Below, in pieces: positions 14,527-56,734 of a stretch of 64,000 nucleotides of DNA. Position 1 is the stretch's first letter. Each line of letters starts with the position of its first letter. Source of the DNA: a bacterium (GTDB lineage Bacteria; Patescibacteriota; Minisyncoccia; Phycocordibacterales; UBA5272). The translations under genes were made by a program, and so were the position numbers. The notes beneath the pieces are model-generated. The model had not been told where the DNA came from and made no database searches. It saw nothing but the letters and a program-made list of their open reading frames with translations. The stretch covers positions 1,349-65,348 of the forward strand of contig JAYUJP010000027.1 of the NCBI GenBank assembly GCA_043765155.1, in the 5' to 3' direction.

Positions 14527-14574
14527 TAATGTGTTAAAATGGTATTTGTAAATGCTTAAAAAGCAGCTACAAAT

Positions 14575-14656: not shown

Positions 14657-14844
14657 CACGATACAAAATAAAATCTGTAGCTATGCTGCAGATTTTATTT
14701 TACTTTGTACACTTTTTATGTTATTATGTATATCTAAATAAGTAGTTCACATACTTGTTTACAAATATATTTAGCTTTGTTTTTGATTGTATATTTTATT
14801 TAAATTAAAATATATTTGATCGAGAATCAAAAGTTAAATTAGAC

Positions 14845-14920
14845 GGTGGCTATAGTGTAATGGTTAGCACTAGGGTTTGTGGAACCCTCAGTTCGGGTTC
14901 AAATCCCGATAGCCACACCA
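14845..14920 (+). tRNA. tRNA-His (anticodon GTG) with encoded G-1 and CCA
   Basis: Extra 5' G before GTGGCTA acceptor. Anticodon loop TTGTGGA. T-loop TTCAAAT. 3' end ACCA. Confidence 0.8.
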
Positions 14921-15061
14921 GACGAGAATAGATTTTTATAAGCGTTATGGCCTATTCTTGTGCAAATACATATTGCTTATTTTTTGTTTTCCAAGTATTA
15001 TATAGATATGAGAAATTATTAAATATTAAAAGTATTTTTAATTTAAATAAAAAATAAAATC

Positions 15062-15705: not shown

Positions 15706-17253
15706 ATGTATATGCAAAAGACATTTAATAATATTTCAAGTTACATTTTATTAGCGACCCCAGTACTAGTTAGTAGTTTATTTATTTATAAGTCACAATT
15801 TCCAGCTTGGGCCAATACTTTATTCTTGTCTCTATTGCTAGCTTTTCTAATTTCTGTTTTGAATTTAAAAAATATTAGAAATAAAAAAGAAGTTAACTTA
15901 CTAAGTTTAGCTATTATAGCTTTGGGTGTTATAGCGTCAGCTGTTTTTGTAATTTTAGATTCTCAGAAGATTAGCTTTGCTCTTTTTGGAAAGGGCTTAA
16001 CTGAGTGGACAGGGATAAGTATATTATCCCTTTTCGTATTCGCAGCTTATTTTATAAATATAAAATCTAAAAAAATTATAGCCATAGCAGCAGCCTCTAT
16101 CGCTATAATTTATACAGTTATAAATTTTATTTTTATAAAGTATTTACCAAGCGTGGCTCAGTATACAGGATATCTAAACATACCAATGGTATCTTTTTCA
16201 AAGCTACTTAATTACGCATTTATACTATGTGTCATTATATTAGCCGCCTCGCTTGTTAATTACTTTATGGAGAAAAAGGGTTATGTTTTTGCTAATATAA
16301 AATCTAGCATTTATGTCTTATCTCTATACATAATAGTACCAGTTATTTTATTTGTAGCAATATGTTCTTATACTTTAAGATACATAGCTGCTTATAATTA
16401 TATACAAGCAGGACAAGAGTACTCAGCTGGTAATTATGTAAAAGCCCGAGAGTCTATAAATAGAGCCATAACAATATCACCGTTTGATGTATATTATGCA
16501 GGCCGTATAGAGATGATAAGTACCGAGATACAGACCCTACTTAATTCTACCTCTACTGATAAGCAGGCTCTAGAGAAAAAGTATAAAGAATTAGTCGAGT
16601 ATCAAATCAGCGATGCCAAAAAAGCAGTCGCCTATGACTCTAAGAATCCTTCTAATTATATGGCACTAGGTCTCGCATATGAGAGATCAATGCTACTTAC
16701 AAAAGAAGGTGGATACAAATTAGCAGCAGAAGCCTATGAGCAAGCACGTGCCATTGCTGAGGATAAGGACTATGTTGATGTGGTAAAGGCTAAGCTATCA
16801 TTCTCGGCTGATAAGGAGCAGGATGCTCTGGTATCATTGGATAGAGCTCTTAATTATAATGCATCATCAGCGCCAGCATTATACATATCTTCTCAGTATT
16901 ATGCTCTCAAGAAAAATCTTAAATCAGCTATAGATTATGGTGAGAAAACAGTAGCAGTAGCACCAAATGCGGTAGATGCCAGAATGCATCTAGGATTATT
17001 ATATCTTGAAAATAATAACATAGACGGAGCCATACAGCTATTTGGTTCAGCTTTTGTACTATCTGAGCAGAGAGATAACGCAGCTCTTTATTATTTGGGG
17101 CTAGCTTACAAAGAGAAAAAAGATATTGCTAATCTTAAATTAGTTCTTAGTGAATTAGAAAAGAGAGTAGACCCAAATCTAAAAGAAGTAAAAGATCTTA
17201 GATCTTTTCTGGATTCAAATACAGCAGAAGTAAAAGTTGAAAAGAAAAAGTAA
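15706..17253 (+). CDS. Polytopic membrane protein with C-terminal TPR repeats (possibly a PMT/DUF2723-like glycosyltransferase)
   Basis: About 9 predicted TM helices followed by TPR-like helical repeats. Confidence 0.4.
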   Translation: MYMQKTFNNISSYILLATPVLVSSLFIYKSQFPAWANTLFLSLLLAFLISVLNLKNIRNKKEVNLLSLAIIALGVIASAVFVILDSQKISFALFGKGLTEWTGISILSLFVFAAYFINIKSKKIIAIAAASIAIIYTVINFIFIKYLPSVAQYTGYLNIPMVSFSKLLNYAFILCVIILAASLVNYFMEKKGYVFANIKSSIYVLSLYIIVPVILFVAICSYTLRYIAAYNYIQAGQEYSAGNYVKARESINRAITISPFDVYYAGRIEMISTEIQTLLNSTSTDKQALEKKYKELVEYQISDAKKAVAYDSKNPSNYMALGLAYERSMLLTKEGGYKLAAEAYEQARAIAEDKDYVDVVKAKLSFSADKEQDALVSLDRALNYNASSAPALYISSQYYALKKNLKSAIDYGEKTVAVAPNAVDARMHLGLLYLENNNIDGAIQLFGSAFVLSEQRDNAALYYLGLAYKEKKDIANLKLVLSELEKRVDPNLKEVKDLRSFLDSNTAEVKVEKKK

Positions 17254-17273
17254 ACAGATTATAAATAAATACT

Positions 17274-17303
17274 AAAAGGCGCCCGCGTAGCGGGCGCCTT
17301 TTA
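17274..17303. terminator. Bidirectional rho-independent terminator between convergent genes
   Basis: AAAAGGCGCCCGC-GTA-GCGGGCGCCTTTT, a perfect GC-rich hairpin flanked by an A-run and a T-run. Confidence 0.7.
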
Positions 17304-17352
17304 GTATTTAGACAATGCATTTACACAAATATTTATTCTTATTTTTGTATTA

Positions 17353-18225
17353 TTACTTCTCCAAAATAGCTAACACTTTTTCGTTTATAACTATTTGCTC
17401 AGCGTAGTTTTTAATTCTAGCCTCATCTAGATTATTTTTATTTATCTCTTCTGGGTTCATATACATCATTACGCGCATCATTTCGGCCTCTACCTCTTCT
17501 TTTGTAACTTCTATTTTCTCAGCCCTTGCTATTTCTAATATTATTATCTGGGCTTTGTCTTTTTCTGTAAATCCTTCTGGCCACACTTCTTTTGCTTTTT
17601 CAGCATCAGTTCCTTGTATGCTAGTTATGATATTTTCTAATATGACGCTTCTAATTTTAGATTTTATCATCATTTCTTTTTCTAATTTTAGATTCTCTTT
17701 TATTTTACTTTCTATATCTGGAGTCTCTGTCTTCACTTTTTCATCAAGCTTTTCCATTATTTCCGCTACTTGCTCAGCTTCTGTTTTGATTTCCTTTTCT
17801 TCTCCGATTTTTGCTGCAGCTTCTTTTACGCTAGCGGCACTTATTTTTTTATAATCAGGCATTGTAAATTCTGGATATACAGCAACATGCGCGTGATAGA
17901 CAAAGTCTGCGTCTTTTTCAAGCTTAACTACATGTATATGTGGCTCGGCTATTGGCTTAATATTATTTTTGCTATGCTCCTCTATCATTATCTTTGGATA
18001 TGACTCATTGATGGCCACGTTCGCCATCTCTTCTAATATCGCTGACTGACCATATTTTGCAATCACTGCATCCTCAGGAGCCATACCTTTTCTAAATCCG
18101 CTTATTTCTATTTCGGCCTGTACGGCTTTAAATGCTTTACTCCATAGCTTGGCAAAATCTGCCGCTAATATTGTTACTTCTAATTCTACTTTACTATTTT
18201 TCTCTTTAGTTATTTTGTGTGTCAT
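17353..18225 (-). CDS. tig: Trigger factor, short form lacking a PPIase domain
   Basis: N-terminal ribosome-binding signature GFRKGMAP (GFRxGxxP). N-domain similarity to Tig. Only 290 aa. Confidence 0.65.
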   Translation of the reverse strand: MTHKITKEKNSKVELEVTILAADFAKLWSKAFKAVQAEIEISGFRKGMAPEDAVIAKYGQSAILEEMANVAINESYPKIMIEEHSKNNIKPIAEPHIHVVKLEKDADFVYHAHVAVYPEFTMPDYKKISAASVKEAAAKIGEEKEIKTEAEQVAEIMEKLDEKVKTETPDIESKIKENLKLEKEMMIKSKIRSVILENIITSIQGTDAEKAKEVWPEGFTEKDKAQIIILEIARAEKIEVTKEEVEAEMMRVMMYMNPEEINKNNLDEARIKNYAEQIVINEKVLAILEK

Positions 18226-26906: not shown

Positions 26907-28604
26907 ATGCTAAGCCCACAAGAATTAGAAGACAAAAATAGAATCACATATTTTGGTGTGACTGACTTTCGCGGCATACAGGAAAAATTTGGCATTAAGG
27001 CAGAAGACAGAACGCGTCACATGTACGTGATAGGCAAGACTGGTATGGGTAAAAGTACCATGCTCGAGAATATGGCCATACAAGATATTCAGAACGGCGA
27101 AGGTATATGCTTTATTGATCCGCATGGTACCACCGCCGAAAAACTTTTAAAATATGTACCCGCTGATCGTATACACGATGTAGTCTACTTTGCGCCATTT
27201 GATACAAAGTATCCAATGGGTTTAAATATATTGGAGCATGTTGATGAGGATTATAGGCACCTTGTAGCTTCTGGGCTTATGGATACATTTAAAAAAGTTT
27301 TCGGTGAGGATGTATTTTCAGGGCGTATGGTGTATTTGCTCAATAACGCTATATTGTCACTACTTGAAAATGAAGGCGAGAGTATGATGGGTATTAACAG
27401 AATATATGCGGACAAAGATTATAGAAAAAAGATAATAAGTAATGTTAAGGACCCAGCATTGCTCGCCTTTTGGAATGAAGAGTTCGCAAAGTATGAGGAC
27501 AAATATGTAAAAGAGGCCAGCGCTGCAATACAAAATAAAATAGGGCAATTTATAATGACGCCAATAGTTAGAAATATTGTCGGACAAAAACATACAAGCT
27601 TTGACATACGTAAAATGATGGACGAGAGGAAAATATTAATATGTAACTTTTCAATAGGGCAGACAGGTTCTGAAAATGTTAACCTGATCGGGTCATTACT
27701 AATAACAAAGATATACTTAGCGGCTATGAGTCGGGCTAATTTAAAAGAGGATGAGCTTAAAAATAGCCCGCCGTTCTATTTTTATGTGGACGAATTTCAA
27801 AATTTTGTTAATGATAGCTTTGCCCAGATATTGTCACAGTCAAGAAAGTATAATCTTGGCCTAGTCATAGCTCATCAATATGTCGAGCAGCTGAGCGACA
27901 CTGTAAAGGCGGCTGTATTTGGTAATGTTGGATCTATGATATCTTTTAGAGTTGGCGCTACTGATGCTGAGCTGCTTGAAAAGGAGTATGCGCCGCAGTT
28001 CACAGCTGACGATATTGTTAATCTTGGAGCTAGGCAGATATATCTTAGGTTATCAATTGACGGCGTCGGGTCCAAGCCATTTTCAGGCCGTACTATGCCG
28101 CCAATCGAGAATCCAGAAGATAATTATGTACCAGCTGTTGTCGCTACTAGTAGGGCAATATATGCAAGGTCCAAGCCTGACGTCCAAGAAGAAGTTAAAA
28201 ATTGGTATGAGCCTGTTGTAAAAAGAGTATCGCCAAATGAAAATATAAATAACACAAATACAAACTTTGCAGAAAAAAGAATACAAGATAAAACAGAATT
28301 TAAAAAAAGTGATGTAAGTGAGTACAAGAAAGAGGAATATAAAAAAGAAAGTAAAATAAAAGAAGAAGTAAAAGTCTCTTACCCGCAAACTTTTGTTGAG
28401 AAAAAACAAGATAATAAAAGTAGCCCACTTCGTGAAGCATTGCAGTCAGCTATGAAAGTAGATGTAAAAAAAGAGAAAGAAAACGAAGAAGTAAAAAAAG
28501 TTAAAATTAATATAGACGAAGCCAAGAACACGTATACTGATATATTTGGAGATATAAAATTAGATCAAGAAAAGTTTAAAAAATTACTAGATCTACAAGA
28601 ATAG
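26907..28604 (+). CDS. VirD4/TraG-type (T4SS coupling protein-like, DUF87/TraM-recognition) P-loop ATPase, soluble form with a K/E-rich C-terminal tail
   Basis: Walker A IGKTGMGKST. Walker B FYFYVDEFQNF. Conserved HQ motif (LVIAHQY) downstream of Walker B. No N-terminal TM. Confidence 0.55.
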   Translation: MLSPQELEDKNRITYFGVTDFRGIQEKFGIKAEDRTRHMYVIGKTGMGKSTMLENMAIQDIQNGEGICFIDPHGTTAEKLLKYVPADRIHDVVYFAPFDTKYPMGLNILEHVDEDYRHLVASGLMDTFKKVFGEDVFSGRMVYLLNNAILSLLENEGESMMGINRIYADKDYRKKIISNVKDPALLAFWNEEFAKYEDKYVKEASAAIQNKIGQFIMTPIVRNIVGQKHTSFDIRKMMDERKILICNFSIGQTGSENVNLIGSLLITKIYLAAMSRANLKEDELKNSPPFYFYVDEFQNFVNDSFAQILSQSRKYNLGLVIAHQYVEQLSDTVKAAVFGNVGSMISFRVGATDAELLEKEYAPQFTADDIVNLGARQIYLRLSIDGVGSKPFSGRTMPPIENPEDNYVPAVVATSRAIYARSKPDVQEEVKNWYEPVVKRVSPNENINNTNTNFAEKRIQDKTEFKKSDVSEYKKEEYKKESKIKEEVKVSYPQTFVEKKQDNKSSPLREALQSAMKVDVKKEKENEEVKKVKINIDEAKNTYTDIFGDIKLDQEKFKKLLDLQE

Positions 28605-28665
28605 TATTTAAAAATTATTAGAGAAATTAATCCTCCTGCGCTAAAGCTTCGGAGGATAAGAAATT

Positions 28666-30075
28666 ATGAAAAAGAATTTATTATTTATTTTAGTGGGCAT
28701 ATTTTTTATAAATATTATTTTTGTAAAAAGTATTTTCGCTTTGCAGATTAGCGAGATTATGTATGACCCCGCGGGTAGCGACACCGGTAATGAGTGGATA
28801 GAGTTATATAATGATACGGGTAGCAGTATTAACCTAACCACTTATAAATTTTTTGAAAATAATGTTAATCACGGCATAACTGCAAATCAAGGAGGTAGTA
28901 GTATTAGTGCTGGCGAATATGTAGTGTTAGCTGATAATCCTACTAACTTTCTGGCGCAGCATGCAGGATATGTTGGTAAAATATTTGACAGTGCTTTTTC
29001 ACTTTCAAATAGCGGCGAATATTTAGAGATGCGAGACGCTAGTAATATTAACTTGTTTTCTGTAACCTATATTACAAATAACGACGCAAATGGTACCGGA
29101 GGAACTTTAAATTATATTGCAGGAGCTACCTCGACCTGGCAAGTTTTTATAGAGTCTCCAGGAGTAGTGTCACCGCAAAACGCTGTACAAAATAATTCTG
29201 CTAATGCTACCAGCAGCAACTCTACCTCTACGCCTAGCGCTACAACTACTAGCTCAAGCGCTACAAATACAACAACAAATACAGGTGCTACTAATTTTTA
29301 CAGCTCAGGTTATACAAATAAGACTTATACCCTTGGTGATCTTAATATGCTAACCCCAAAAGAAATATGGACTGTGGCTGGTGCCAATACCTACTTTTTT
29401 GTTAAGCCTATAGATTCAAAAAAGAATACAGTGCCTAGTAATACTTATTGGTCATTTGGTGATGGGGCAGAAGGTCTTGGCTCTACTACCACCCACAGAT
29501 ATTATAATGCGGGGTATTATACTGCTTTTGTCGAGAGTGAGATTAGTAATGCCTATGGTATTGAGCGTATAGCGGTAAATGTAGCAAGTCCGGACATATC
29601 AATAAGTGAAATTGGGGATAATTATATTATTATCAAAAATAATAGTAGCACAGAATTAAATATTGGAGGATTTATTATTGGTAGCGATCAGGGATTTTTT
29701 AAGCTATCGCGTCACCTTATTTTAAAAGAAAATTCTGAGCTAAAAATAGACGGTAGAGTAATGGGATTTACAAATCTTACCAACCCTAAAATATTATCTT
29801 CTGATATGGCTAACATATCTGTATATAAGAATAAAGCTAATATAAATCAAGAAATAAAATCAGAAATCCCTAATGCCACTTCTACCTTACAGATAAATAA
29901 AAAAGTCATATTGTCTAAAAATTATCTTTATAAAAATAATCAGTACAAAAAAGACTTAAACCCAAAAGAAAAATCTACAAGCTCTGTAGCATCACTCGCC
30001 GCTAATATAACTCCACCTGTGGACATTACACCTATCAAAAAGGTGAAAAATTGGTTATACTGGTTATATGAATAA
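28666..30075 (+). CDS. Secreted lamin-tail-domain (LTD) protein with a PKD-like domain
   Basis: Signal peptide. LTD motif ISEIMYDPAGSDTGNEWIELYN, and a second LTD-like copy. PKD-like WSFGDGAEGLGSTTTHRYYNAGYYTAFV. Confidence 0.65.
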   Translation: MKKNLLFILVGIFFINIIFVKSIFALQISEIMYDPAGSDTGNEWIELYNDTGSSINLTTYKFFENNVNHGITANQGGSSISAGEYVVLADNPTNFLAQHAGYVGKIFDSAFSLSNSGEYLEMRDASNINLFSVTYITNNDANGTGGTLNYIAGATSTWQVFIESPGVVSPQNAVQNNSANATSSNSTSTPSATTTSSSATNTTTNTGATNFYSSGYTNKTYTLGDLNMLTPKEIWTVAGANTYFFVKPIDSKKNTVPSNTYWSFGDGAEGLGSTTTHRYYNAGYYTAFVESEISNAYGIERIAVNVASPDISISEIGDNYIIIKNNSSTELNIGGFIIGSDQGFFKLSRHLILKENSELKIDGRVMGFTNLTNPKILSSDMANISVYKNKANINQEIKSEIPNATSTLQINKKVILSKNYLYKNNQYKKDLNPKEKSTSSVASLAANITPPVDITPIKKVKNWLYWLYE

Positions 30076-31480
30076 AATTAAATTAAGCCTATTTTGCTTG
30101 TGTCTTTTTACAGCAGCTTTTTCTTATAATGCGTATGCTGCTAATTGGTGGGATGTTGGATACTCGCAGGGAGTTACTGTGCAGAGTAGTACTCAGAGTC
30201 AAGTTATAATACCTGAGACTAATATATCTACTAATCCTAGCACCTCCAATAATTCAAATACAAATTCTACTACAAATATAAGTACGACCCCTCTAAAAAT
30301 TATAAGTTATGATGTAGAGGGTGACGCTAATGGTAACAATATAAGAGATGAGGTTGATGGTATAATATCAAGTCTAGTATCTCAATATAATTTTGACCTA
30401 AAGCAAAAAAGGTCTTTGGAGCAGATAGCTAGGTCCTATCAGTATGTGCTTATATTTGCTCCTAATAGTGTGAGCTCTGCTTTTCAAGTTAATATAAGAG
30501 ATGTGGCCGCTACAAAGTGTGCTGAGCAGAGGCTACCTGCCAGCACACTTGACCTTGTTGTAGAAAAAATAGAAGCAGCAACCCTTAATACTCCTCAAAA
30601 GAGAGCGGCATACGATGTTTATACAAACTTTTTAGATGAAAATAGTCAGGGAGTTAGCAGCAATTCTTCTTGTGAGGACGAATTTTCTGGGTCTGGTGCA
30701 AACCCTAATAATGGAGGACCTATTACTTTGGGTGAGCAGTCTTTGCCTTGCCTAGTACTGAACCAGTTTATGGAAATAGGTAGCTCAGGTCAGCAAGTTA
30801 TCAAGCTTCAGACCTTTCTAGTATTATCAGGTAATATGTCAGTGTGGCCAACTGGATATTTTGGAGGTAATACAGCCTTTGCTGTCAAAAATTTCCAAAA
30901 CAAATACGGCATAGATAGCAGCAGATCATGGGTTGGTCCTAGTACTAGGGCAAAAGTAGCTGAGACAACCTGTAACGGAGACCCTAGTGCAATAGCTTCA
31001 GCTCGTAATGGTTTTAGTGTTAAAAAGTATGTAGCCCCTAAAAAAGTAGTATACAAAAAGCCAGCAATTAAGACTGTGTCTGAGACTACAACAATAGAGA
31101 TAGCAACTACAACTATTGAGACATCAACTATTTTTGTAGATAATACTAGCCTCGCTGTACTATCTAATACGTCTGGGACTTTTGATACAAGAAGAAACCC
31201 GATCAATGCACTTTACTTTACAGTAAAAGCCGACACAAAAAGAGACGAGTTATATGTATGTACCGAGAGTAAGTTAAATTCAAATTGTTTTGATCAAAGT
31301 TCATATACACTAGTTAGGCAAAAGTATGACAGTACTACCTACGACAGTATAGCTAGCAACGATAGATGGATATTTAATATATATTATAATCAAAATACTT
31401 GGGGTAATACAGGAGGAAAAATATATTTTAAAAATGGCACCGGCGGAGTCCCGAGTGTATATAGTGTGAACGTAAGATAA
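30068..31480 (+). CDS. Secreted protein with a peptidoglycan-binding (PG_binding_1) domain
   Basis: Signal peptide. GQQVIKLQTFLVLSG...GYFGGNTAFAVKNFQNKYGI. 8-nt overlap with the upstream gene. Confidence 0.55.
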   Translation: MNKIKLSLFCLCLFTAAFSYNAYAANWWDVGYSQGVTVQSSTQSQVIIPETNISTNPSTSNNSNTNSTTNISTTPLKIISYDVEGDANGNNIRDEVDGIISSLVSQYNFDLKQKRSLEQIARSYQYVLIFAPNSVSSAFQVNIRDVAATKCAEQRLPASTLDLVVEKIEAATLNTPQKRAAYDVYTNFLDENSQGVSSNSSCEDEFSGSGANPNNGGPITLGEQSLPCLVLNQFMEIGSSGQQVIKLQTFLVLSGNMSVWPTGYFGGNTAFAVKNFQNKYGIDSSRSWVGPSTRAKVAETTCNGDPSAIASARNGFSVKKYVAPKKVVYKKPAIKTVSETTTIEIATTTIETSTIFVDNTSLAVLSNTSGTFDTRRNPINALYFTVKADTKRDELYVCTESKLNSNCFDQSSYTLVRQKYDSTTYDSIASNDRWIFNIYYNQNTWGNTGGKIYFKNGTGGVPSVYSVNVR

Positions 31481-31635
31481 GTCATATTTTTTAAATTTAA
31501 GAAAAAATAACTTAAAAATATATATCTGAAATTTTAAATCAAGAGTTAAATAAACAAGAAATAAATGTTAAAAAATTCTCTTTTTTCAGAAGCTCATATT
31601 TTGTAATCTCCCTACCCTTAATAATATTAACATGT

Positions 31636-31866
31636 TTGATATTTTATAATTATATTATCCATCCTTGTGGCAATGATTGGGGGTGTAACTTGTATTTTGC
31701 TCTTGCTTTCATGCTCACGCTGCCTGTACTTATAGTAACTTCTTTTTTAATACTCTTTAATTTTCTTTTTAGAAGAAGTGTACAGAGTAAGTGGGCCAGA
31801 TTCTTTTTAGTCATATTCCTTTTCACACTAATAGTTTTATTCTTAGTTTCCTATTTTCTATTTTAA
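31636..31866 (+). CDS. Small hypothetical membrane protein
   Basis: ORF track. Two hydrophobic helices. Confidence 0.25.
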   Translation: MIFYNYIIHPCGNDWGCNLYFALAFMLTLPVLIVTSFLILFNFLFRRSVQSKWARFFLVIFLFTLIVLFLVSYFLF

Positions 31867-31949
31867 TGGCTTCCGAGTATTAAAATTGTGTTATTGGTTA
31901 TAGGCCTAAACCACTTTACATTAGACTATGAATAGGTTATAATTAGACC

Positions 31950-33005
31950 ATGTTAAAACCAGTATTTAGCCTAAATACAGAGCTGTTAGATAATATAGTA
32001 AAGATTAAAAATATTGTAAGTGAGTTAAATAATCAAAAGTTTTCAGGCTTGGTATTGTTAGACTTGGAAAAAAATAGTTATGCGCTATCCGCTTTTGCCT
32101 CTACTAGTATAGAAGGAAACCCCCTACCCTTAACAGACGTAAAAAGACTTTTAAAACAAAAGCCAGAAAAAATTAGAGATACAGAAAGAGAGGTGCTAAA
32201 TTATAATAAGGCTCTTGAATTTTTAAATACTGAAACATCCAGAGACCTAAAGGTAAAAGTAAATACAGATAAAAGCAAAAAATTAGAATCAAAAATAAAT
32301 AATGATTTTATTTGCAAGATACAGTCTATTGTAATAGAGGGGCTATTAGATAAAAGTAATATTGGGAAATTTAGGAAAAATCCTGTCATAGTCAACGACC
32401 CTAAAAAAAGAAAAGTAGCATATATACCGGCAGATGCAAAAGACGTAGAAAGACTAATGAGTGAGCTCACGAATTTTATACATTCAGAAGCCAAAAATGT
32501 CGACCCTTTAATTTTGGCTGGGATTTTCCATAAGCAATTTGTTATAATTCATCCGTTTATGGATGGTAACGGTAGGACAACTAGACTGGTGACAAAGTAT
32601 TTATTGGCTAGTATGGGACTAGACACTTTTAAGCTTTTTAGTTTTGAGAATTACTATAATAAAAATGTGACTAATTATTTTTCAAAAGTAGGTGTGCTGG
32701 GTGATTATTATGAGATAAAAGATAAAATTGATTTTACTGACTGGCTAGTTTATTTTACAGGAGGTATTATTGATGAGCTTCTAAGAGTTCAGAAAATACT
32801 TGAGAGCACTAATATAAAAAGAACAGAACCTTATGAGCAGATAATTCTTGATTTTATTAAAAAGAACAAATCTATCTCTAAAAGTGAATATGAAAAAATT
32901 ACAGACAGAAAAAGATCTACCCAAATTTTAGATTTTAAAAGATTGGTAGATAAAGGTATGATAAAAAGAGAAAATAAAGGCAAGGCCACTTATTATACTA
33001 TCTAA
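31950..33005 (+). CDS. Fic family protein (class II, N-terminal inhibitory helix) with a C-terminal winged HTH
   Basis: Fic motif HPFMDGNGRTTRL. Inhibitory motif (S/T)xxxE(G/N) = STSIEGN upstream of the core. C-terminal wHTH. Confidence 0.8.
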   Translation: MLKPVFSLNTELLDNIVKIKNIVSELNNQKFSGLVLLDLEKNSYALSAFASTSIEGNPLPLTDVKRLLKQKPEKIRDTEREVLNYNKALEFLNTETSRDLKVKVNTDKSKKLESKINNDFICKIQSIVIEGLLDKSNIGKFRKNPVIVNDPKKRKVAYIPADAKDVERLMSELTNFIHSEAKNVDPLILAGIFHKQFVIIHPFMDGNGRTTRLVTKYLLASMGLDTFKLFSFENYYNKNVTNYFSKVGVLGDYYEIKDKIDFTDWLVYFTGGIIDELLRVQKILESTNIKRTEPYEQIILDFIKKNKSISKSEYEKITDRKRSTQILDFKRLVDKGMIKRENKGKATYYTI

Positions 33006-33040
33006 AATAGGATATAGTACAAAAGCCTATTGCTTATATA

Positions 33041-33050
33041 GGGGGGGGGG
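33041..33050 (+). repeat. G10 homopolymer directly abutting a TGATATAAT -10 box. Candidate phase-variable promoter.
   Basis: gggggggggg then tgatataat (33051..33059), 31 nt before the ATG at 33090. Confidence 0.6.
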
Positions 33051-33089
33051 TGATATAATTGACTTAGTAAAAATTAAATAATAATAAAA

Positions 33090-34346
33090 ATGCAACAAAA
33101 TAAAATCTTAAAAAAAATTAGCATAAGCATACTAATATTAGTAGGAATATTTAACATAAGTCATGCGCAGATTCCAAGTAATGATGTAGACAGATGCATA
33201 AAAATAAAGAAAAATATCCGCTTTTTAAGTCGTGATAGCAGTAGATCAAATGACGTTACACGGCTTCAGATTTTTCTAAAAAATGAAGGGTATCTAAAAT
33301 CACAGGCGGATGGAGTATTTAGAGTTAGTACTCGCTCAGCTGTGATTACATTCCAGAAAGATAATGGATTTGGCGCGGCTGCCAAAGGTAATGTTGGCCC
33401 AACTACTCGCACAAAAATACAAGAGCTAACTTGCAATAATGCCGATGTTACTGTTAAGCCAGTGAATACTAACATTATCACATCAGGACAAATAAATACT
33501 GCAGTCTCAACAGTAACAGTAAATAAAGTTCAACCATATCTGGAATCATATATAGATTATGTAGACTCTAAGAGAGATGCATTTGTCATGAATTGGAAAG
33601 CCTCTAGTCCCGTTGGTGTTAAGCTTATTGTGGATTGTCGCCCAGGAATTAATATAATATCTGACCAGAGTAATGGTAAAAATATCTGTGATAGTAACGG
33701 CACTGTTGGAGTGTGGGAGAATGTAGACTCTGGTTCTGTTATTATAAGATCGAAAGGCAATGTATCTAGTTTTGGAGTGGGGGCAACTTTAGGAATTCTT
33801 GATAAAAATGGAGAATTCGTAAAGAATAGTAATATTTCTGATGGAAAAGGGAGACTTATGATGCAAAATGAGGTATTTGTTATAACTTTTCCAGCTGATG
33901 CAGCTGCTGTAGCAAGTGCTGCCATTAATACACAAGTTCCGTCAGTATTTTCTAACGGAGTAGAGTCTATTAATGGCATCGCTGTGCCTCCTATGCCAAG
34001 TGCCCCTAATTTGAATATCGCTGGTATAGATACAAATAATAACGGTATGCGCGACGATGTAGACCGAGCATTAGCTAGCCGCACTGGGGCTAATTCAGAG
34101 ATTTATAATTTTGCTGTTAAGTCTGCCAAAAATTTGCAACTAGCCATAACTTCGGTTAGTGCAACTACAGCAAGTAGGGCGATATTTGAAGATACAAATC
34201 AGCAAGCTTGCGGTAGTGCGTCAGCAAAAGAGGGCGCTAAAATTTCTAATGAGGAGACGCTGAATACCAGAGAAAGACAGGGCGCTGCTGTAGCAGCTTA
34301 TTTTAGTGGTCTTACTGCAGAAAATGCTGTTATTAGTTGTCAATAA
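33090..34346 (+). CDS. Secreted protein with an N-terminal peptidoglycan-binding domain
   Basis: Signal peptide. VTRLQIFLKNEGYL...DGVFRVSTRSAVITFQKDNGF. Confidence 0.55.
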   Translation: MQQNKILKKISISILILVGIFNISHAQIPSNDVDRCIKIKKNIRFLSRDSSRSNDVTRLQIFLKNEGYLKSQADGVFRVSTRSAVITFQKDNGFGAAAKGNVGPTTRTKIQELTCNNADVTVKPVNTNIITSGQINTAVSTVTVNKVQPYLESYIDYVDSKRDAFVMNWKASSPVGVKLIVDCRPGINIISDQSNGKNICDSNGTVGVWENVDSGSVIIRSKGNVSSFGVGATLGILDKNGEFVKNSNISDGKGRLMMQNEVFVITFPADAAAVASAAINTQVPSVFSNGVESINGIAVPPMPSAPNLNIAGIDTNNNGMRDDVDRALASRTGANSEIYNFAVKSAKNLQLAITSVSATTASRAIFEDTNQQACGSASAKEGAKISNEETLNTRERQGAAVAAYFSGLTAENAVISCQ

Positions 34347-35961: not shown

Positions 35962-38493
35962 ATGCTTAAGAAAATAAATAAAATTAGTCTTAAAAATATT
36001 AAGCCATTTAAAGTTGCGGTATTTTTATGCGTGCTTACTTTTATTATTTTGATTTTGTCACAGACTATTTATACAAAAAATAACCCAAGGCAAGATAAAC
36101 TTAATAGAGAGCTAGAAAATACTAAAAATAAAATAGTGAATGAAGTAACAGAATTGTACCCTATAAAAGTCGTAGACATAGTGGTGCCGCATAGTACAGA
36201 GGAGATATCTGAGTATGTTAAAAAGTATGACCATATATCGATTGGAGGTGGACGTAATAGTATGGGTGGGCAGACTGCAAGCGAGAAAGCGGTGCAGATA
36301 GACATGCGGGAATTTAATAAAATACTTAACCTATCAACCACTACAAAAGAAATAACCGTACAGACTGGTGCAAGATGGAGAGATGTGCAAGATTATATCG
36401 ACCCATATAACCTCTCTGTAAAAATAATGCAGACTTATTCTAACTTTACTGTAGGGGGGTCACTGTCTGTTAACGTACACGGTAGATACGTAGGACTCGG
36501 GCCTATAATATTATCTGTTAAAAGTATAAAAGTAGTGCTAGCGAGCGGTGAAGTTGTAATAGCGAGCCCAATAGAAAACCAAGAGATATTTTTCTCAGCT
36601 ATTGGTGGTTATGGGGGTATAGGAGTTATAACAGAGGCAACTTTGGAGTTAGCTGATAATGTGAGTGTAGAGCGATCAAGGGTTAAGATGCCAATAGGTG
36701 AGTATGCTAATTATTTTAAAAATATAATAAAAGCTAGTAGTTCAAAAATACTTTTTCATAATGGTGATATATATCCGATGGATTTTGATAGTGTGAGCGG
36801 TGTTAGTTGGATTGTTACTGATAAGACACCTACAACAAAAGATAAATTAATACCAAGATCTCAAGATTATTGGCTTGAGCGTTTTGTCTGGGTGACTATG
36901 AGCGAATGGCCTCTAGGCAAGTGGATACGTGAATATATCTTAGAACCTGTTTTATACAGCGGCACTCAGCCAGTACATACTAGAAATTATGAGGCAAGCT
37001 ATGATATTATGGAGCTAGAGCCAGAAAGCAGAGCGTCTAGTACTTATGTGTTACAAGAATACTTTGTACCTGTGGAAAATTTTGATGTATGGATACCAAA
37101 GATGAAAAAAGTTTTTGTTGATAATAATGTAAATCTTTTGAATGTTTCTATACGTCACGCCCTCCCTGATCCAGGGTCAAAACTTGCTTGGGCAAAAGGT
37201 GAGAGCTTTGCTTTTGTTATATATTATAAACAAGGTACTGATGAAAAATCAAAACAAGAAGTTGCTAATTGGACAAGGCAAATGATAGATCAGGTGTTAA
37301 TGGTTGACGGAGGTTATTATCTACCTTATCAGCCACATGCGACCGACGAGCAATTTTATGCTGCGTATCCAAAGTGGCAAGAGTATTTTGAAATTAAAAA
37401 TAAGTATGACTCTACAGGTAAATTCACAAATAAGCTTTGGGATAAATATTATAATAAAAACAAAATAGAAAATTATAAAAATAAACAAGAAATTATAAGT
37501 ATATCCAGTAGCACAAAAGACTATTTTAGACCCGCTGATAATATGTACTTGTCTATACCTGAGTGGTATATAGTTTATAGTGCAGGCGAATATGCAAGTG
37601 TACTCAAAAATAATATGCCCAGCAGTTTTAATTACTCACAAGCTATAAAAAATTACTGGGAACAATTTGATATAGTAAATAAAAAAGTTGCGACAAGTAC
37701 AACCAGTAACTTAGATTATATTAATATACTAAAAGTTATAGGAGTCAGCTTTACCGCAGAAAATATTGTAAAGGTCCTGTATGAAAATACTATAGGTAGA
37801 GTGTCAGAATATTTAGCTGGAAATGTACAAGTGGCAGAGGATAAATTAGCCTATGAGGGGGCAAAAAGTTACGCAGACTTTATTTATGACTACCCTTGGT
37901 ATGACTTTAACTATGGATTTTATTTTAAAAAAGTGTGGACTGTAAGTGATTATGAAGCTACGCGAGGAGTAGAAAAAAAATATACTATCGGGCAAAATAC
38001 AAGAAGAGTAGAGAGGAAAATGTTCCTGAGTTTAGAGTACGGCATAAAGTATTTGTATGCAAAAGCTATTGCTTATGCTACCCACACAAAGTTTGGAGTT
38101 CAGAATGATATAATAAGCGCAGTAGTCATAAAAAATTATACAGAAAAAGAGAGTAATAAAAATATAAAAGAAATAATTAGTGCTGCGCATTATCAGCCGT
38201 TTACTAAAAAGTTAATAGAAGATTTTGATTACGCATACAAAAATAATTATGAGTATAAAATTTTAGATATAGCTGGAAATAGCCTAATAACTTTTTCTTA
38301 TATAGATAGCGTAGGTGCAATTATCTCAGATAACACAAAAGAGATTTTGCGTGATGAAGAAAACATAGATGTAGATGGAGTACTAATTAAAAAAGATAGA
38401 ATAACTGTTGAGACTGGTGTCAGTAATCTATTTGCAATTTATAAAGAGTTAAAAAATAAAAATATAGTAATAGACCATCTATATGATTACTAG
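35962..38493 (+). CDS. FAD-binding (PCMH-type) oxidase, D-arabinono-1,4-lactone/gulonolactone-oxidase-like, with an N-terminal TM and a long C-terminal extension
   Basis: FAD_binding_4-like VVPHSTEEISEYVKKYDHISIGGGRNSMGGQ. ALO-like middle region. About 350 aa unassigned C-terminal. Confidence 0.55.
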   Translation: MLKKINKISLKNIKPFKVAVFLCVLTFIILILSQTIYTKNNPRQDKLNRELENTKNKIVNEVTELYPIKVVDIVVPHSTEEISEYVKKYDHISIGGGRNSMGGQTASEKAVQIDMREFNKILNLSTTTKEITVQTGARWRDVQDYIDPYNLSVKIMQTYSNFTVGGSLSVNVHGRYVGLGPIILSVKSIKVVLASGEVVIASPIENQEIFFSAIGGYGGIGVITEATLELADNVSVERSRVKMPIGEYANYFKNIIKASSSKILFHNGDIYPMDFDSVSGVSWIVTDKTPTTKDKLIPRSQDYWLERFVWVTMSEWPLGKWIREYILEPVLYSGTQPVHTRNYEASYDIMELEPESRASSTYVLQEYFVPVENFDVWIPKMKKVFVDNNVNLLNVSIRHALPDPGSKLAWAKGESFAFVIYYKQGTDEKSKQEVANWTRQMIDQVLMVDGGYYLPYQPHATDEQFYAAYPKWQEYFEIKNKYDSTGKFTNKLWDKYYNKNKIENYKNKQEIISISSSTKDYFRPADNMYLSIPEWYIVYSAGEYASVLKNNMPSSFNYSQAIKNYWEQFDIVNKKVATSTTSNLDYINILKVIGVSFTAENIVKVLYENTIGRVSEYLAGNVQVAEDKLAYEGAKSYADFIYDYPWYDFNYGFYFKKVWTVSDYEATRGVEKKYTIGQNTRRVERKMFLSLEYGIKYLYAKAIAYATHTKFGVQNDIISAVVIKNYTEKESNKNIKEIISAAHYQPFTKKLIEDFDYAYKNNYEYKILDIAGNSLITFSYIDSVGAIISDNTKEILRDEENIDVDGVLIKKDRITVETGVSNLFAIYKELKNKNIVIDHLYDY

Positions 38494-41999: not shown

Positions 42000-42434
42000 T
42001 TACTTCCACACACCTAGCCATATTCCGATATACTCTACTACGCCGTATAAGAATATTATATAAAATATTATGCCGGCTATTAGTGCTAGCGCTAGCTTGT
42101 TTATGATTTCATTTCTACGCTTTTTGACATCGTCTAGGGTGCATACCCCAGCTCTTTTCATATAAAAGTAAAAAGCTACAAGCAATGCTATTAGTCCCAA
42201 AGCGCGGAATGCCCACTTATAAGTCCCGTAAAATATATTAGCAATATCACCGGCAATGCTAACACTAACTAACCCGAGAGAAAGTAGTATTATTGGTGAC
42301 AGGCAGCATAGCGAGGCTATAACTGCAGGTACGCTTGCTATCTTAAAAGCTTCTTTTAATTTTACAGATATTGGCCTAGTATCTTTAATTTGATCAGCTC
42401 TTATTATATTATATTTTGGTTTTGTTTTTTGCAT
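42000..42434 (-). CDS. Small membrane protein with an intramembrane CC motif, last gene of the msrAB operon
   Basis: SLCCLSPIILL in the first TM. Four TM helices. Function unknown, possibly thiol/redox- or metal-related. Confidence 0.35.
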   Translation of the reverse strand: MQKTKPKYNIIRADQIKDTRPISVKLKEAFKIASVPAVIASLCCLSPIILLSLGLVSVSIAGDIANIFYGTYKWAFRALGLIALLVAFYFYMKRAGVCTLDDVKKRRNEIINKLALALIAGIIFYIIFLYGVVEYIGIWLGVWK

Positions 42435-42476
42435 ACTTTTGATTAAGTGTAATCACCACTTAAGTATTTTTTTGTA

Positions 42477-43724
42477 TTATTTTAATAAGCTAGTATACTC
42501 ACCATAAGCCCCCTTCTCCATATCAGTTAAAGGTATAAATTTCATCGCAGCTCCGTTCATACAATATCTTTTGCCTCCTCTATCACTTGGTCCATCTTCA
42601 AATACATGACCTAGATGTGAGTCGGCTATCTTACTTCTAACCTCTGTTCTGGTTGAGAATATTCCATCATCAACGTGAAATGTCACAGCGTATTCAGATA
42701 TAGGCTTTACAAAGCTTGGCCAGCCTGTGCCGCTATTATATTTATCTTTTGATAAAAATAGTGGCTCACCAGAAACTATGTCTACGTATAGGCCCACCTC
42801 TTTGTTATCATTATAATTACCATTTGAAAATGGTTTTTCGGTACCACTATCTTGAGTTACTTTTAGGCTAATAGCGCTCAAAGTTTTTAATTTTTCATTT
42901 TTAATTTGCGGAGCAAAATTCTCCCAGCTTTTTACATTTTTGTTTTCGTTCAAATTGCTTGATACATTCTCGACTCTATTTACTTTTGTAGTAGATCCAT
43001 CTTGCCAGTGTAATTTGATAAAGTCATTACGCCCCGAGCCGTCACGATACAGCTCATATCTGACTGGATTCTTATCCTTATAATCTTGATGATACTCCTC
43101 GGCAGGATAAAAATTATTATAGGGTAATATTTCGGTTACTATTTTTTTAGTTAAAAATTTTGGATTATTATCTATATAATCTTGCGTTTCTAGTTTTGAT
43201 TTTTCTATTGCCAGCTTTTGCTCATCATTTGTATAGTATATAGCAGTAGTATATTGATAACCCTGATCTGCAAATTGCCCATACGCATCGGTCGGGTCTA
43301 TATGACGCCAGTATTTTGCAAGTAGATTATTAAGAGTGGTACTAGCACTATTATAATATACAAGTACCGCCTCACGCGCCCTCACATCACCACTACCAAC
43401 TTCAGCGTAGCTTGGATTTTCTTTTGCGCTATCAGCATATCCAGATATAGCAGTTACTACGCCTTCAAGATGATTAAATTCTGACTCGGTGCACCAGAAA
43501 CACCCACCAGCAAAAACTATTTTGCTATAATTTTTCTCTAATTCTTCTTGTGTTAAGTTTTCTTTGTTCATACTTTTGTTTTGTTTAAGATTTATAGCTT
43601 GCTCTAGTGTTAGATTTTTGGATGTATATTTTTGATATATTATAGTTGATAAATAGATGGCTATTACTAGTATTATACTATATATTATTGGAGTTGGTAT
43701 TTTTAGATTTAAGATTTTTTGCAT
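42477..43724 (-). CDS. msrAB: Membrane-anchored bifunctional peptide-methionine (S)/(R)-sulfoxide reductase MsrA-MsrB
   Basis: N-terminal TM anchor. MsrA GCFWCTE. MsrB HLGHVFEDGP...RYCMN. Confidence 0.85.
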   Translation of the reverse strand: MQKILNLKIPTPIIYSIILVIAIYLSTIIYQKYTSKNLTLEQAINLKQNKSMNKENLTQEELEKNYSKIVFAGGCFWCTESEFNHLEGVVTAISGYADSAKENPSYAEVGSGDVRAREAVLVYYNSASTTLNNLLAKYWRHIDPTDAYGQFADQGYQYTTAIYYTNDEQKLAIEKSKLETQDYIDNNPKFLTKKIVTEILPYNNFYPAEEYHQDYKDKNPVRYELYRDGSGRNDFIKLHWQDGSTTKVNRVENVSSNLNENKNVKSWENFAPQIKNEKLKTLSAISLKVTQDSGTEKPFSNGNYNDNKEVGLYVDIVSGEPLFLSKDKYNSGTGWPSFVKPISEYAVTFHVDDGIFSTRTEVRSKIADSHLGHVFEDGPSDRGGKRYCMNGAAMKFIPLTDMEKGAYGEYTSLLK

Positions 43725-53412: not shown

Positions 53413-53553
53413 TTTGTCATTATTTATGATATAATCATGCTTAAGATAAAGTATAGATATAGCTTAAAACCCTAAAAAGTTGAGCTATGTTGAAAATCCG
53501 TTCTGTGCTGATTAGGTAGGAATAGGAAATGGACCCGACTTTATTTTCTTTAA

Positions 53554-53590
53554 GCCCAGGTGGTGCCAAGTTCAGTAGAGGTAGACACGC
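53554..53590 (+). pseudogene. Degenerate 5' fragment of tRNA-Leu (duplicate of the first about 28-37 nt of the downstream tRNA-Leu)
   Basis: TTTAAGCCCAGGTGGTG and GGTAGACACGC shared with 53631..53660. No T-arm or acceptor 3' half follows. Confidence 0.5.
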
Positions 53591-53633
53591 TTTGTGTTAA
53601 CTAAAACTTTATTAGCAGCATTTGGCAATTTAA

Positions 53634-53718
53634 GCCCAGGTGGTGAAATTGGTAGACACGCTTGCCTTAGGAGCATGTGGAGCAATCCGTGAAGGTTCAA
53701 GTCCTTTCCTGGGCACCA
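53634..53718 (+). tRNA. tRNA-Leu (anticodon TAG), CCA encoded
   Basis: GCCCAGG acceptor. D-arm GTG-AAATTGGTAGA-CAC. Anticodon loop CTTAGGA. Long variable arm. T-arm GAAGG-TTCAAGT-CCTTT. There is one T:T mismatch in the anticodon stem. Confidence 0.7.
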
Positions 53719-53775
53719 AGTCGCGACAGTACGAGGTTCGTCAAAATACCTAATATTACATTAAATTAAAAAATT

Positions 53776-54111
53776 ATGACACCAGATTATATAGATTACG
53801 AAGAAATGTTAGAAATTGATGATTCAAGTGATTTTATTAATTTATTGACTGAGAGAACGTCAACCTTTGGAAAATTATTTGATCTGCTAGATGAAATGAT
53901 TTCTTGGGAAGAAATAAACACTACTATCTCAATTTCTGACTCTGAAGATGGATCAGGAGCAATGATAAAAAGACTGTTTTCAGATAAAACAAAAGCTTTT
54001 GAAATATTATCTTTCATGAAAAAACTCGATAAGATTACTGGATCAAGTACTTTACAAGAAGCAATAATTGCTAAAACTGCAATGGATAGAGTTTACCTTG
54101 GTAAAATTTAA
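53776..54111 (+). CDS. Small acidic hypothetical protein, sole cargo of the tRNA-Leu-flanked segment
   Basis: ORF track. pI strongly acidic. No recognisable domain. Confidence 0.35.
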   Translation: MTPDYIDYEEMLEIDDSSDFINLLTERTSTFGKLFDLLDEMISWEEINTTISISDSEDGSGAMIKRLFSDKTKAFEILSFMKKLDKITGSSTLQEAIIAKTAMDRVYLGKI

Positions 54112-54359
54112 TCAAATAAATCAGAGATGTATTAAAATCTTTGTATATTGTAATTAGATAAAAATATGATGGATACTTTACTTAATAGTGAGTTTTTATG
54201 GTTCTGTTACGATGTGGGGAACATAAAAAAATATAACCCATACGCGAAGAGCGTGTGGGTTTTATTTTTCTGACCAAGAAAGGATCTTGAATACGGGGTC
54301 GAGGAGCAATGTTTTATTGGAGTGCGATAGCACGAACAAGAAAATATGTGCGAGGTGAC

Positions 54360-54378
54360 CAAGTCCTTTCCTGGGCAC
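54360..54378 (+). repeat. Direct repeat of the tRNA-Leu 3' end (CAAGTCCTTTCCTGGGCAC), attR-like
   Basis: 19/19 identity with 53696..53714. No 5' half of a tRNA upstream of it. Confidence 0.6.
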
Positions 54379-55716: not shown

Positions 55717-55743
55717 AAATGTTATAATTATCCTAAATAAATT

Positions 55744-56463
55744 ATGTCAGAAGAATCAAGAATCAAGAATCAAGATTTTAATAATCTAAATCATAAGCTT
55801 AATGATGCTAATTTCCTTTTAGAATATAAAAGTAAATATGATAACTATCAAGTGTCGCTAGTACCCAAAATATTAGGAGGATTTTTAGTCTGGAGCGGCA
55901 ATATATTTTACGGCGCTGCGCCGTCATATTTAAAGTTTAGAGCGATAGAGGTGATAGCGCGCGTACCTTATCAGTCTTGGGTCTCGGGCGCATATACGTT
56001 ACTCACATTATTTTATACTGATGAGAAAAAGGCGATAGACCTAGCTGACGCAAAATTATTTGCTAGGCATGCTAATGATAATGAGACAATGCATGTCGTT
56101 GTCATATCACATATTGTGAACGTAGAGCATAAAAATATAAATATATTTACTCACAGCATAATACCGATAATATTCTCTTTCTTTTACTTTTGGGTCTCAT
56201 ATCTATTATTTTTGATAAATAGAAAGTGGAGCTATGAGCTCAATTATCTTTTTGAAGATCATTCGTATCATCAGTATAATACCTTTATAAATAGATATGA
56301 GGAAAAGCTAAAAGCCAAAGAGGTATGCAGTGAATTTCTCAATTGGTATGGTCGGGGATGCAGTAACCAGTACGAATTCTTCTTATCGGTCCGTAATGAT
56401 GAGCTTATACATAGAAATTACAGTATCGAGGAATTAGAAAAATTTGAGAGAAATAATAAATAA
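55744..56463 (+). CDS. Alternative-oxidase-like membrane-bound di-iron carboxylate protein
   Basis: All four AOX iron-ligand motifs are present in order: IEVIARVP (cf. LETVAGVP), NDNETMHVV (NERMHL), LFEDHSYHQY (LEEEAIHSY), RNDELIHRN (RADEAHHRD). Hydrophobic membrane-binding segment between motifs 2 and 3. Confidence 0.55.
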   Translation: MSEESRIKNQDFNNLNHKLNDANFLLEYKSKYDNYQVSLVPKILGGFLVWSGNIFYGAAPSYLKFRAIEVIARVPYQSWVSGAYTLLTLFYTDEKKAIDLADAKLFARHANDNETMHVVVISHIVNVEHKNINIFTHSIIPIIFSFFYFWVSYLLFLINRKWSYELNYLFEDHSYHQYNTFINRYEEKLKAKEVCSEFLNWYGRGCSNQYEFFLSVRNDELIHRNYSIEELEKFERNNK

Positions 56464-56469
56464 AAAGAA

Positions 56470-56508
56470 AACCCGCCAAAACGAATTTTCTTCGTTGGCG
56501 GGTTTATT
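56470..56508. terminator. Bidirectional rho-independent terminator (AOX-like gene and island lipoprotein)
   Basis: AAAACCCGCCAA...TTGGCGGGTTTATTT. Confidence 0.7.
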
Positions 56509-56734
56509 TGCTACAGGTAGCAATTTGACCGTCGTTCCGGTACCTTACGCTTGCTCCTCCATTTGGGAACATAAGGTAAGCTATGCCGTCTATACAAATC
56601 GGTTTTGTCATAGGAACAATTTTCTGCTTTTCTGCTTCGTTGCTTACAACGGGAACGCTTTTTTGTCCTAATAAGTCGCAACCAGCGAGTGCGATAAACG
56701 TTACAAATACAGCGGTAATTTTAATAACTTTCAT
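56504..56734 (-). CDS. Small lipoprotein on the second GC-rich (foreign-looking) island
   Basis: AGGAGG SD 6 nt before ATG. Lipobox LAGC. Local GC about 45-50%. No close family recognised by eye. Confidence 0.5.
   Translation of the reverse strand: MKVIKITAVFVTFIALAGCDLLGQKSVPVVSNEAEKQKIVPMTKPICIDGIAYLMFPNGGASVRYRNDGQIATCSK

Follow-up and report, generated by a model that had tools for sequence, protein, structure and literature searches.

The 64,000-nucleotide stretch analysed here (the window; contig JAYUJP010000027.1 of the patescibacterial assembly GCA_043765155.1, positions 1,349 to 65,348) carries a gene whose product belongs to the family of alternative oxidases (AOX) and plastid terminal oxidases (PTOX) and is of the di-iron carboxylate type. 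On balance, our analyses lean toward a functional oxidase that would act as a non-pumping quinol:O2 oxidoreductase on scavenged quinone, removing O2 and disposing of reductant, with a heptanucleotide repeat at the 5′ end of its open reading frame (ORF) being incidental. The gene is as follows.

55744-56463, plus strand: ORF of 239 aa, starting with ATG, for a probably membrane-associated di-iron carboxylate oxidase of the AOX/PTOX family, Patescibacteria clade (Pfam, AlphaFold2 model, Foldseek, dN/dS)

The AOX family PF01786 was the sole Pfam match of the protein (30.9 bits where the gathering score is 22.7, with E 2.6e-7 and a match to profile positions 58-210 of 216), and an NCBIfam scan returned no family. 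A first-pass annotation, made from the letters of the DNA, had proposed an AOX-like di-iron protein and a search with this very profile as the check; the match upholds the proposal over any other ferritin-like family. The four AOX motifs that it quoted are all present in the translated ORF and in the correct order.

55945-55968, plus strand: motif 1, IEVIARVP (aa 68-75), with E69 as iron ligand 1, aligned to E123 of the trypanosome alternative oxidase (TAO)
56074-56100, plus strand: motif 2, NDNETMHVV (aa 111-119), with the iron ligands E114 and H117 (ExxH) and the conserved N113
56248-56277, plus strand: motif 3, LFEDHSYHQY (aa 169-178), with the iron ligand E171, the PTOX-type His H173 and the catalytic Tyr Y178 at +7
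56392-56418, plus strand: motif 4, RNDELIHRN (aa 217-225), with the iron ligands E220 and H223 (ExxH) and the conserved D219

The six di-iron ligands (E69, E114, H117, E171, E220 and H223, in the order E/ExxH/E/ExxH) are invariant in an alignment of 44 clade members, as are Y178, N113, D219, K64, H173 and Q177. When 25 sequences from the Patescibacteria, Acidimicrobiales and algal PTOX-like clades were aligned, the same ligands together with Y178, N113, D219 and H173 were again invariant, but K64 was not. The profile of these three clades reached TAO at E 8e-8 with the ligands in register, and gave the following correspondences between the window protein and TAO.

Iron ligands: E69 = E123, E114 = E162, H117 = H165, E171 = E213, E220 = E266, H223 = H269
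Other active-site residues: Y178 = Y220, N113 = N161, D219 = D265, K64 = R118

In the same alignment, Gln177 takes the position of TAO T219 and His173 that of TAO E215. Searches of the PDB chains with the single sequence and with the 44-member clade profile found no TAO or AOX chain at E ≤ 10.

The predicted structure is also that of the AOX/PTOX family. An AlphaFold2 model was built on the 44-sequence clade alignment (pLDDT 90.7, pTM 0.89), and in a Foldseek comparison with the PDB its top 13 matches were all TAO chains (probability 0.97-1.0, TM 0.50-0.55) and the sole meaningful ones; the best had probability 1.0 and TM 0.54. The root-mean-square deviation is high (~9 Å), so the agreement is at the level of the fold only. 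In a viral library the best match was H8ZJQ8 (E 1.4e-5, 23% identity), followed by the plastoquinol terminal oxidase of Synechococcus phage S-N03. Two helices of the model are hydrophobic and are placed where AOX/TAO has its membrane-binding helices.

55858-55911, plus strand: hydrophobic/amphipathic helix, aa 39-56 (LVPKILGGFLVWSGNIFY), candidate first membrane-docking helix (AlphaFold2 helix H39-56)
56143-56217, plus strand: strongly hydrophobic, aromatic-rich helix, aa 134-158 (IFTHSIIPIIFSFFYFWVSYLLFLI), candidate membrane-insertion helix (AlphaFold2 helix H134-158)

The first of these has a mean hydropathy of 1.18 and would be equivalent to helix α1 of TAO. In the second, the stretch 139-158 averages 2.15 on the Kyte-Doolittle scale over 19 residues and aligns with the hydrophobic TAO segment SIIITQAIMYLFLLVAYVISPRF, which lies between the ExxH and third-Glu motifs of TAO; this confirms the hydrophobic segment that had been noted between motifs 2 and 3. 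In addition, some clade members (P0027 and P0114) carry an extra hydrophobic tail at the C-terminus. The oxidase is probably monotopic, though its second hydrophobic helix might instead span the membrane.

Although the label AOX is right for the family, the protein is nearer to PTOX and to a clade of Acidimicrobiales than to mitochondrial-type AOX. A profile search of 1.84 billion representative proteins gave 448 matches at E ≤ 1e-3, and the best 150 of these, grouped by motif, fell into three groups: the present clade with NETMH in motif 2, a high-GC bacterial clade with NEQWH and a eukaryotic PTOX-like group with NE[LM]HH. The PTOX-type third motif E-x-H-A-x-x-x-Y is common to all three groups, and the mitochondrial NERMH/LEEEA pattern did not occur among the 150. 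The mean identities of the window protein over 207 aligned columns were as follows.

Own clade: 55%
High-GC clade: 26%
PTOX-like group: 23%
TAO: 16%

In a neighbor-joining tree (100 bootstraps, capped distances, unrooted bipartition tests), which had one outgroup fragment and is therefore indicative, the Patescibacteria clade was monophyletic in 100/100 replicates, sister to the high-GC clade in 99/100 and grouped with PTOX in 1/100. The high-GC clade comprises proteins called 'alternative oxidase' in metagenome-assembled genomes (MAGs) of Acidimicrobiales/Ilumatobacteraceae, with 4,680 proteins matching at E ≤ 1e-10. Algal PTOX-like sequences contain an insertion between motifs 3 and 4, and both bacterial clades are without it. 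An assignment to mitochondrial-type AOX in the strict sense was rejected on the grounds of FEDHS (FE-x-HA in the clade) in place of LEEEA, 16% identity and no direct match to TAO. PTOX in the strict sense was rejected because the insertion is absent, motif 2 reads NETMH rather than NE[LM]HH and the tree groups the protein with the Acidimicrobiales clade. Judged from these sequence comparisons, the window protein is neither of the two, yet it is a member of the AOX/PTOX family.

The Acidimicrobiales clade (proteins P0439, P0477 and P0486; loci L094 and L095) is itself large and uncharacterised, and our literature search found no paper discussing it. Its hosts are free-living Actinomycetota with their own menaquinone pool. 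As the Actinomycetota in which this sister clade lives use menaquinone, menaquinol is a plausible, if speculative, ancestral substrate. A tentative extension of this idea, which we regard as possible though doubtful, is that the Patescibacteria and Acidimicrobiales clades constitute a third functional AOX/PTOX branch, first tuned to menaquinol, which in Paceibacteria would work on the quinone of a host or neighbor as the main O2-consuming enzyme of a quinone-auxotrophic symbiont. If this were true, the gene would serve as a genetic marker of both quinone piracy and aerotolerance within the radiation.

The oxidase gene is widespread among relatives of the organism sampled here. A word-indexed search gave 1,168 homologues, counted as clusters at 90% identity, with E ≤ 1e-3; of these, the best 120 are 55-73% identical to the window protein except for one variant at 98%, and the named ones among them are called 'alternative oxidase/ubiquinol oxidase' of Patescibacteria, Paceibacterota, Kaiserbacteria or Minisyncoccota. 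When one genome per GTDB species was scanned, at least 218 loci were found, and 78 of the 80 listed belong to Patescibacteria-type MAGs (Paceibacterota, Kaiserbacteria, Yonathbacteria, Nomurabacteria, Adlerbacteria and Parcubacteria). The isolate names among the loci listed include many rivers, lakes, glacier-fed streams, groundwater and activated sludge, that is, mostly oxic waters, groundwater and sludge. The window lies within a 124.5-kb ENA scaffold, and the best named relatives of its SecY are from Patescibacteria; together with the relatives of the oxidase, this supports the candidate-phyla-radiation (CPR) type of host that had been suggested at first pass.

The relative L004, in which SecY, DnaK and the oxidase are 72%, 85% and 59% identical to those of the window, keeps the gene order secY-rmuC-L21 ... 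oxidase-grpE-dnaK-clpB, which argues for vertical inheritance and not for recent transfer. Compared with locus L083, whose surrounding DNA is ~93% identical, the oxidase gene has a dN/dS of 0.046, indicating strong purifying selection. A phage-borne origin, as in cyanophage PTOX, is unsupported, as no relative of the gene was found on viral contigs. Sequence conservation, at 55-70% identity within the clade, and gene order thus suggest that the oxidase is probably a conserved, vertically inherited gene of many Paceibacteria. It is already annotated automatically as 'alternative oxidase' in many MAGs, while the clade is unstudied: no work on it turned up in our literature search on AOX/PTOX in CPR, Patescibacteria, Parcubacteria and Acidimicrobiia. 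A eukaryote-centred AOX survey reported a single CPR match and ascribed it to transfer from Proteobacteria (PMC9540462), an account that, from the position of the clade as sister to the Acidimicrobiales clade, does not fit the proteins described here.

The usual picture of Patescibacteria is one of fermenters that have no electron-transport chain, and the way in which they handle oxygen has been discussed chiefly in terms of rare cytochrome bo3 and bd oxidases. Because they are generally unable to make quinones, the quinone used by such an oxidase would be scavenged. By analogy with AOX and PTOX, the two hydrophobic helices would dock the four-helix bundle on the cytoplasmic face of the membrane, and quinol would enter a hydrophobic channel lined by K64 (R118 in TAO), A174, Q177 and Y178 (Y220 in TAO). 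At the di-iron centre formed by the six ligands given above, O2 would be reduced to water with four electrons and without proton pumping. The quinone would be acquired with lipids of a host or of the community and would be re-reduced by a flavoprotein dehydrogenase, and the role in oxic habitats may be O2 scavenging and disposal of excess reductant, not energy conservation.

A comparable situation has been described for other oxidases. Among the loci found here is an ortholog in Parcubacteria C7867-001 (L079), with no respiratory genes in its neighbourhood. That genome is reported to encode a cytochrome bd but no quinone synthesis, and a supply of quinone by the host has been proposed (PMC4508563). 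More generally, cytochrome bo3 and bd quinol oxidases in Parcubacteria genomes without quinone synthesis have been read as O2 scavengers, possibly working on host quinones (PMC4508563, PMC9938205).

The surroundings of the gene were searched for redox partners. On the 82 kb of the scaffold that were annotated, no quinone-biosynthesis, NADH-dehydrogenase or cytochrome-oxidase genes were found. The respiration-poor setting noted at first pass therefore holds for this DNA, but the gene is not odd for its genome, being conserved across many Paceibacteria. In ~80 related loci, ORFs were called and clustered in flanks of up to 10 kb, and no conserved redox partner was found within 10 kb of the oxidase. 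These loci show only lineage-specific housekeeping synteny (PilM/N/O-like, RuvX, PolA, Mur ligase, RuvA, riboflavin-kinase-like, EamA and PduO-type adenosyltransferase proteins, named partly by reading representative sequences). The two Acidimicrobiales loci, L094 and L095, are also without a redox partner.

One alternative is that the genome encodes elsewhere a pathway for quinone or a short yet complete respiratory chain, which would make the protein an ordinary alternative terminal oxidase. The 82 kb inspected belong to a genome of likely 0.6-1 Mb, NDH-2-like proteins and cytochrome oxidases occur in some CPR lineages, and in one relative (L001) a dihydroorotate dehydrogenase (DHODH)-like gene and a DprE1-like flavoprotein are found near the oxidase. 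Published surveys, however, report no quinone biosynthesis in Parcubacteria genomes, including one ortholog carrier, and describe electron-transport chains as generally missing from the phylum. Moreover, the DHODH-like protein is not assignable to the quinone-dependent class, with all of its matches far below cutoff. We consider this alternative quite improbable.

A candidate electron donor for the oxidase lies 17 kb away from it in the window (35962-38493, plus strand). This protein of 843 aa has an N-terminal hydrophobic stretch and is membrane-anchored; its first ~500 residues, a VAO-type FAD domain, resemble sugar-1,4-lactone oxidase/DprE1 with scores far below the family cutoffs, and are fused to a domain of ~350 aa without assigned function. 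In L001 the same two halves are encoded by separate adjacent genes (15909-17501 and 14287-15402), 5 kb from the oxidase. Since enzymes of the sugar-1,4-lactone oxidase/DprE1 type often pass electrons to quinones or cytochrome c, the flavoprotein is a possible donor.

A different pattern in the neighbourhood involves stress and repair genes. The gene immediately upstream of the oxidase is ogt in the window, L083, L012 (9471-9971) and L042 (602-1102) and clpB in L005 (7322-9994) and L078 (7309-9984), and grpE-dnaK-clpB adjoins the oxidase in the window and L004. This recurring adjacency is a weak theme, which hints at co-regulation.

Several observations weigh against a quinol oxidase on scavenged quinone. 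Identity to TAO is only ~16%, the clade's own profile fails to reach TAO by sequence, and the PTOX-specific insertion is absent. The positions of TAO T219 and E215 are occupied by an invariant Gln and an invariant His, respectively. No redox partner is conserved in the ~80 loci, no quinone-reducing dehydrogenase or quinone-biosynthesis gene was found on the 82 kb annotated, and the DprE1-like flavoprotein is near the oxidase in two loci only (the window and L001). In addition, the literature yielded no biochemically characterised member of the clade. In TAO, T219 touches the bound inhibitor or quinol; with Gln177 in its place here, the head-group pocket may differ. His173 is common to PTOX.

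The same fold and metal centre might instead serve a non-quinol substrate, the protein being a di-iron oxidase or oxygenase that acts on another lipophilic reductant or on a lipid. Such a substrate would fit an organism without a quinone pool, as quinone synthesis and most of the respiratory chain are reportedly missing from Patescibacteria, and quinone-linked genes were found neither in the 82 kb nor beside the gene in the ~80 loci. The clade-specific invariant changes to Gln and His at the two TAO positions, and the distance of the sequence from both characterised subfamilies, would also be in line with it. On the other hand, the catalytic Tyr, the basic residue at the position of TAO R118, the ligands and the second shell (N113 and D219) are invariant as in proven quinol oxidases, and the His at E+2 is common to PTOX, a proven plastoquinol oxidase. 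Furthermore, the sister clade resides in Acidimicrobiales, which have a menaquinone pool, and CPR genomes that lack quinone synthesis are already known to contain orphan quinol oxidases (cytochrome bo3 and bd). We thus judge a non-quinol substrate unlikely and continue to favor oxidation of a scavenged quinol.

The heptanucleotide repeat at the 5′ end of the gene was examined separately.

55751-55775, plus strand: perfect heptanucleotide tandem repeat, in the register AAGAATC/GAATCAA, encoding E-S-R-I-K-N-Q (Tandem Repeats Finder)

The program reported period 7, 3.6 copies and 100% match, within codons 3-11. The (GAATCAA) repeat noted at first pass is thus real, and one unit gained or lost would truncate the protein, with a stop at codon 15 or codon 13, respectively. 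Like phase-variable contingency loci, it is a tandem repeat in the 5′ end of an ORF with a unit that is not a multiple of three, and it might be supposed to switch the oxidase on and off by slipped-strand mispairing. It is also statistically unusual, as three such perfect repeats occur in the 64 kb against 0.2 expected under a first-order Markov model. However, the repeat does not differ among six independent contigs, which come from five samples, and ten other variants of at least 90% identity all have the same N-terminal length; nine of the ten read MSEETRIKNQ, in which Thr5 breaks the first unit, and one reads MENTKDKNQ. The ~93% relative L083 has only about two units. Three to four units are at the low end for efficient slippage. 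Phase-variable loci differ from the present repeat, which has only 3.6 units, shows no length variation in 16 alleles/contigs and is unconserved in near relatives. As its length does not vary and it is broken in relatives, the perfect repeat is best regarded as an incidental coding repeat, a recent and strain-specific by-product of the coding sequence with no evidence of a switch. A switch acting through the frameshift pointed out at first pass is unsupported, given this constancy, and a contingency locus here is very improbable.

Two candidate signals flank the oxidase gene.

55720-55728, plus strand: TGTTATAAT, extended −10-like element, read from the sequence and a candidate only
56469-56505, no strand assigned: GC-rich hairpin followed by UUUAUUU, candidate bidirectional intrinsic terminator (RNA fold, minus-strand terminator-like flag)

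The TGTTATAAT element is 16 nt 5′ of the ATG, inside the 27-nt gap after ogt, and was unflagged in a consensus promoter scan because it has no −35 match. No obvious Shine-Dalgarno sequence was found before the ATG, pointing to a very short leader. The hairpin (RNA fold −21 kcal/mol, z −5.3) sits between the oxidase gene and a convergent lipoprotein-like ORF of 76 aa. With the −10-like element upstream and the hairpin downstream, the oxidase gene looks like a stand-alone transcription unit. The convergent ORF (56504-56734, minus strand) has a lipoprotein-like N-terminus (…FIALAGC…) and no family match, and gene calling picked it up in all assemblies of this population.

The gene order in this part of the window is SecY, RmuC, Fic, L21, tRNA-Leu, a 111-aa ORF, AHSA1/SRPBCC, a 70-aa ORF, Ogt, the oxidase, the 76-aa ORF on the opposite strand, GrpE, DnaK and ClpB. 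Pfam (PF01035 for Ogt, AHSA1/SRPBCC for the other neighbour) and the tRNA positions confirm the neighbours named at first pass. The tRNA-Leu(tag) gene is at 53634-53718; its first 17 nt are duplicated 80 nt upstream (53549-53565 / 53629-53645), and a perfect copy of its last 19 nt is found 662 nt downstream (53698-53716 / 54360-54378). The 3′ duplicates bracket the 111-aa ORF (53776-54111), which has no family match, and the duplications look like the remnant of a small integration at the tRNA. The scar at the tRNA-Leu gene that the first-pass annotation had mentioned near the oxidase is thus based on a real repeat, but the oxidase is outside the segment that the repeat brackets. A location of the oxidase in a tRNA-Leu island was rejected, as the 19-nt repeat brackets only 53698-54378 and the GC content is flat.

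Other features of the window were recorded in passing. An MsrA/MsrB fusion (methionine-sulfoxide reductase; 42000-43724, minus strand) adjoins a MerT-like small membrane protein and forms an oxidative-damage repair module. The plus-strand run at ~26907-34346 encodes a TrwB-like coupling protein, a lamin-tail-domain protein, peptidoglycan-binding-domain proteins and a Fic protein, and is possibly a secretion- or conjugation-related surface module. A 2,852-aa ORF (1227-9785, plus strand) has no Pfam match and contains 51/102-nt tandem repeats at 4515-4730; upstream of it on the parent scaffold are ORFs of 1,751 aa (no Pfam match) and 686 aa (faint PG_binding_1 only). All three are probably large surface proteins typical of CPR.

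As an individual gene, the oxidase is ordinary for its lineage, and the window adds one member, correctly guessed from sequence, to the clade. The worthwhile question concerns a lineage-wide, unstudied O2-reducing enzyme in bacteria that are supposed to be non-respiring and quinone-auxotrophic. A conserved and strongly selected single-subunit oxidase in at least 218 species-level genomes of Paceibacteria is a candidate for a common, overlooked enzyme of this kind. If it is a quinol oxidase, the cells would get both quinones and the means of reducing them from external sources, and the gene would provide a testable handle on host dependence and aerotolerance.

Compared with known systems, the protein shares with TAO (PDB 3VV9/3VVA) the Pfam family, the E/ExxH/E/ExxH ligands, a catalytic Tyr placed at +7 relative to the third Glu, the motif shapes N-E-x-M-H and R-x-D-E-x-x-H-R, a basic residue five positions before the first Glu and a four-helix-bundle fold, with hydrophobic helices where TAO has its membrane helices. 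Mitochondrial and trypanosomal AOX differ in having L-E-E-E-A in motif 3, where F-E-D-H-A is found here, and in T219 of TAO, which is replaced by Gln; furthermore, the present host, a bacterium, presumably cannot make quinones. PTOX/IMMUTANS and cyanophage PTOX resemble it in ARVPY after ligand 1, in the third motif E-x-H-A-[YF]-x-x-Y and in an identity of ~23%, above that to AOX, whereas their photosynthetic, plastoquinone context is missing here and motif 2 reads NETMH instead of NE[LM]HH.

The clade of Acidimicrobiales/Ilumatobacteraceae (Actinomycetota) has a similar length (~235-250 aa), the motifs ARVPYQxW and FEDHA, no PTOX insertion and a stand-alone gene with no conserved partner at its two loci, but is only ~26% identical and has NEQWH in motif 2. 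Finally, the orphan cytochrome bo3 and bd oxidases of CPR are alike in that they are quinol-dependent O2 reductases in genomes without quinone synthesis or a full chain, for which scavenging or detoxification of O2 with host-derived quinone has been proposed, and C7867-001 carries both a cytochrome bd and the oxidase described here. These haem-copper and bd enzymes are unrelated to it, multi-subunit and electrogenic, whereas the present protein would be a single-subunit, non-haem and non-pumping di-iron oxidase.

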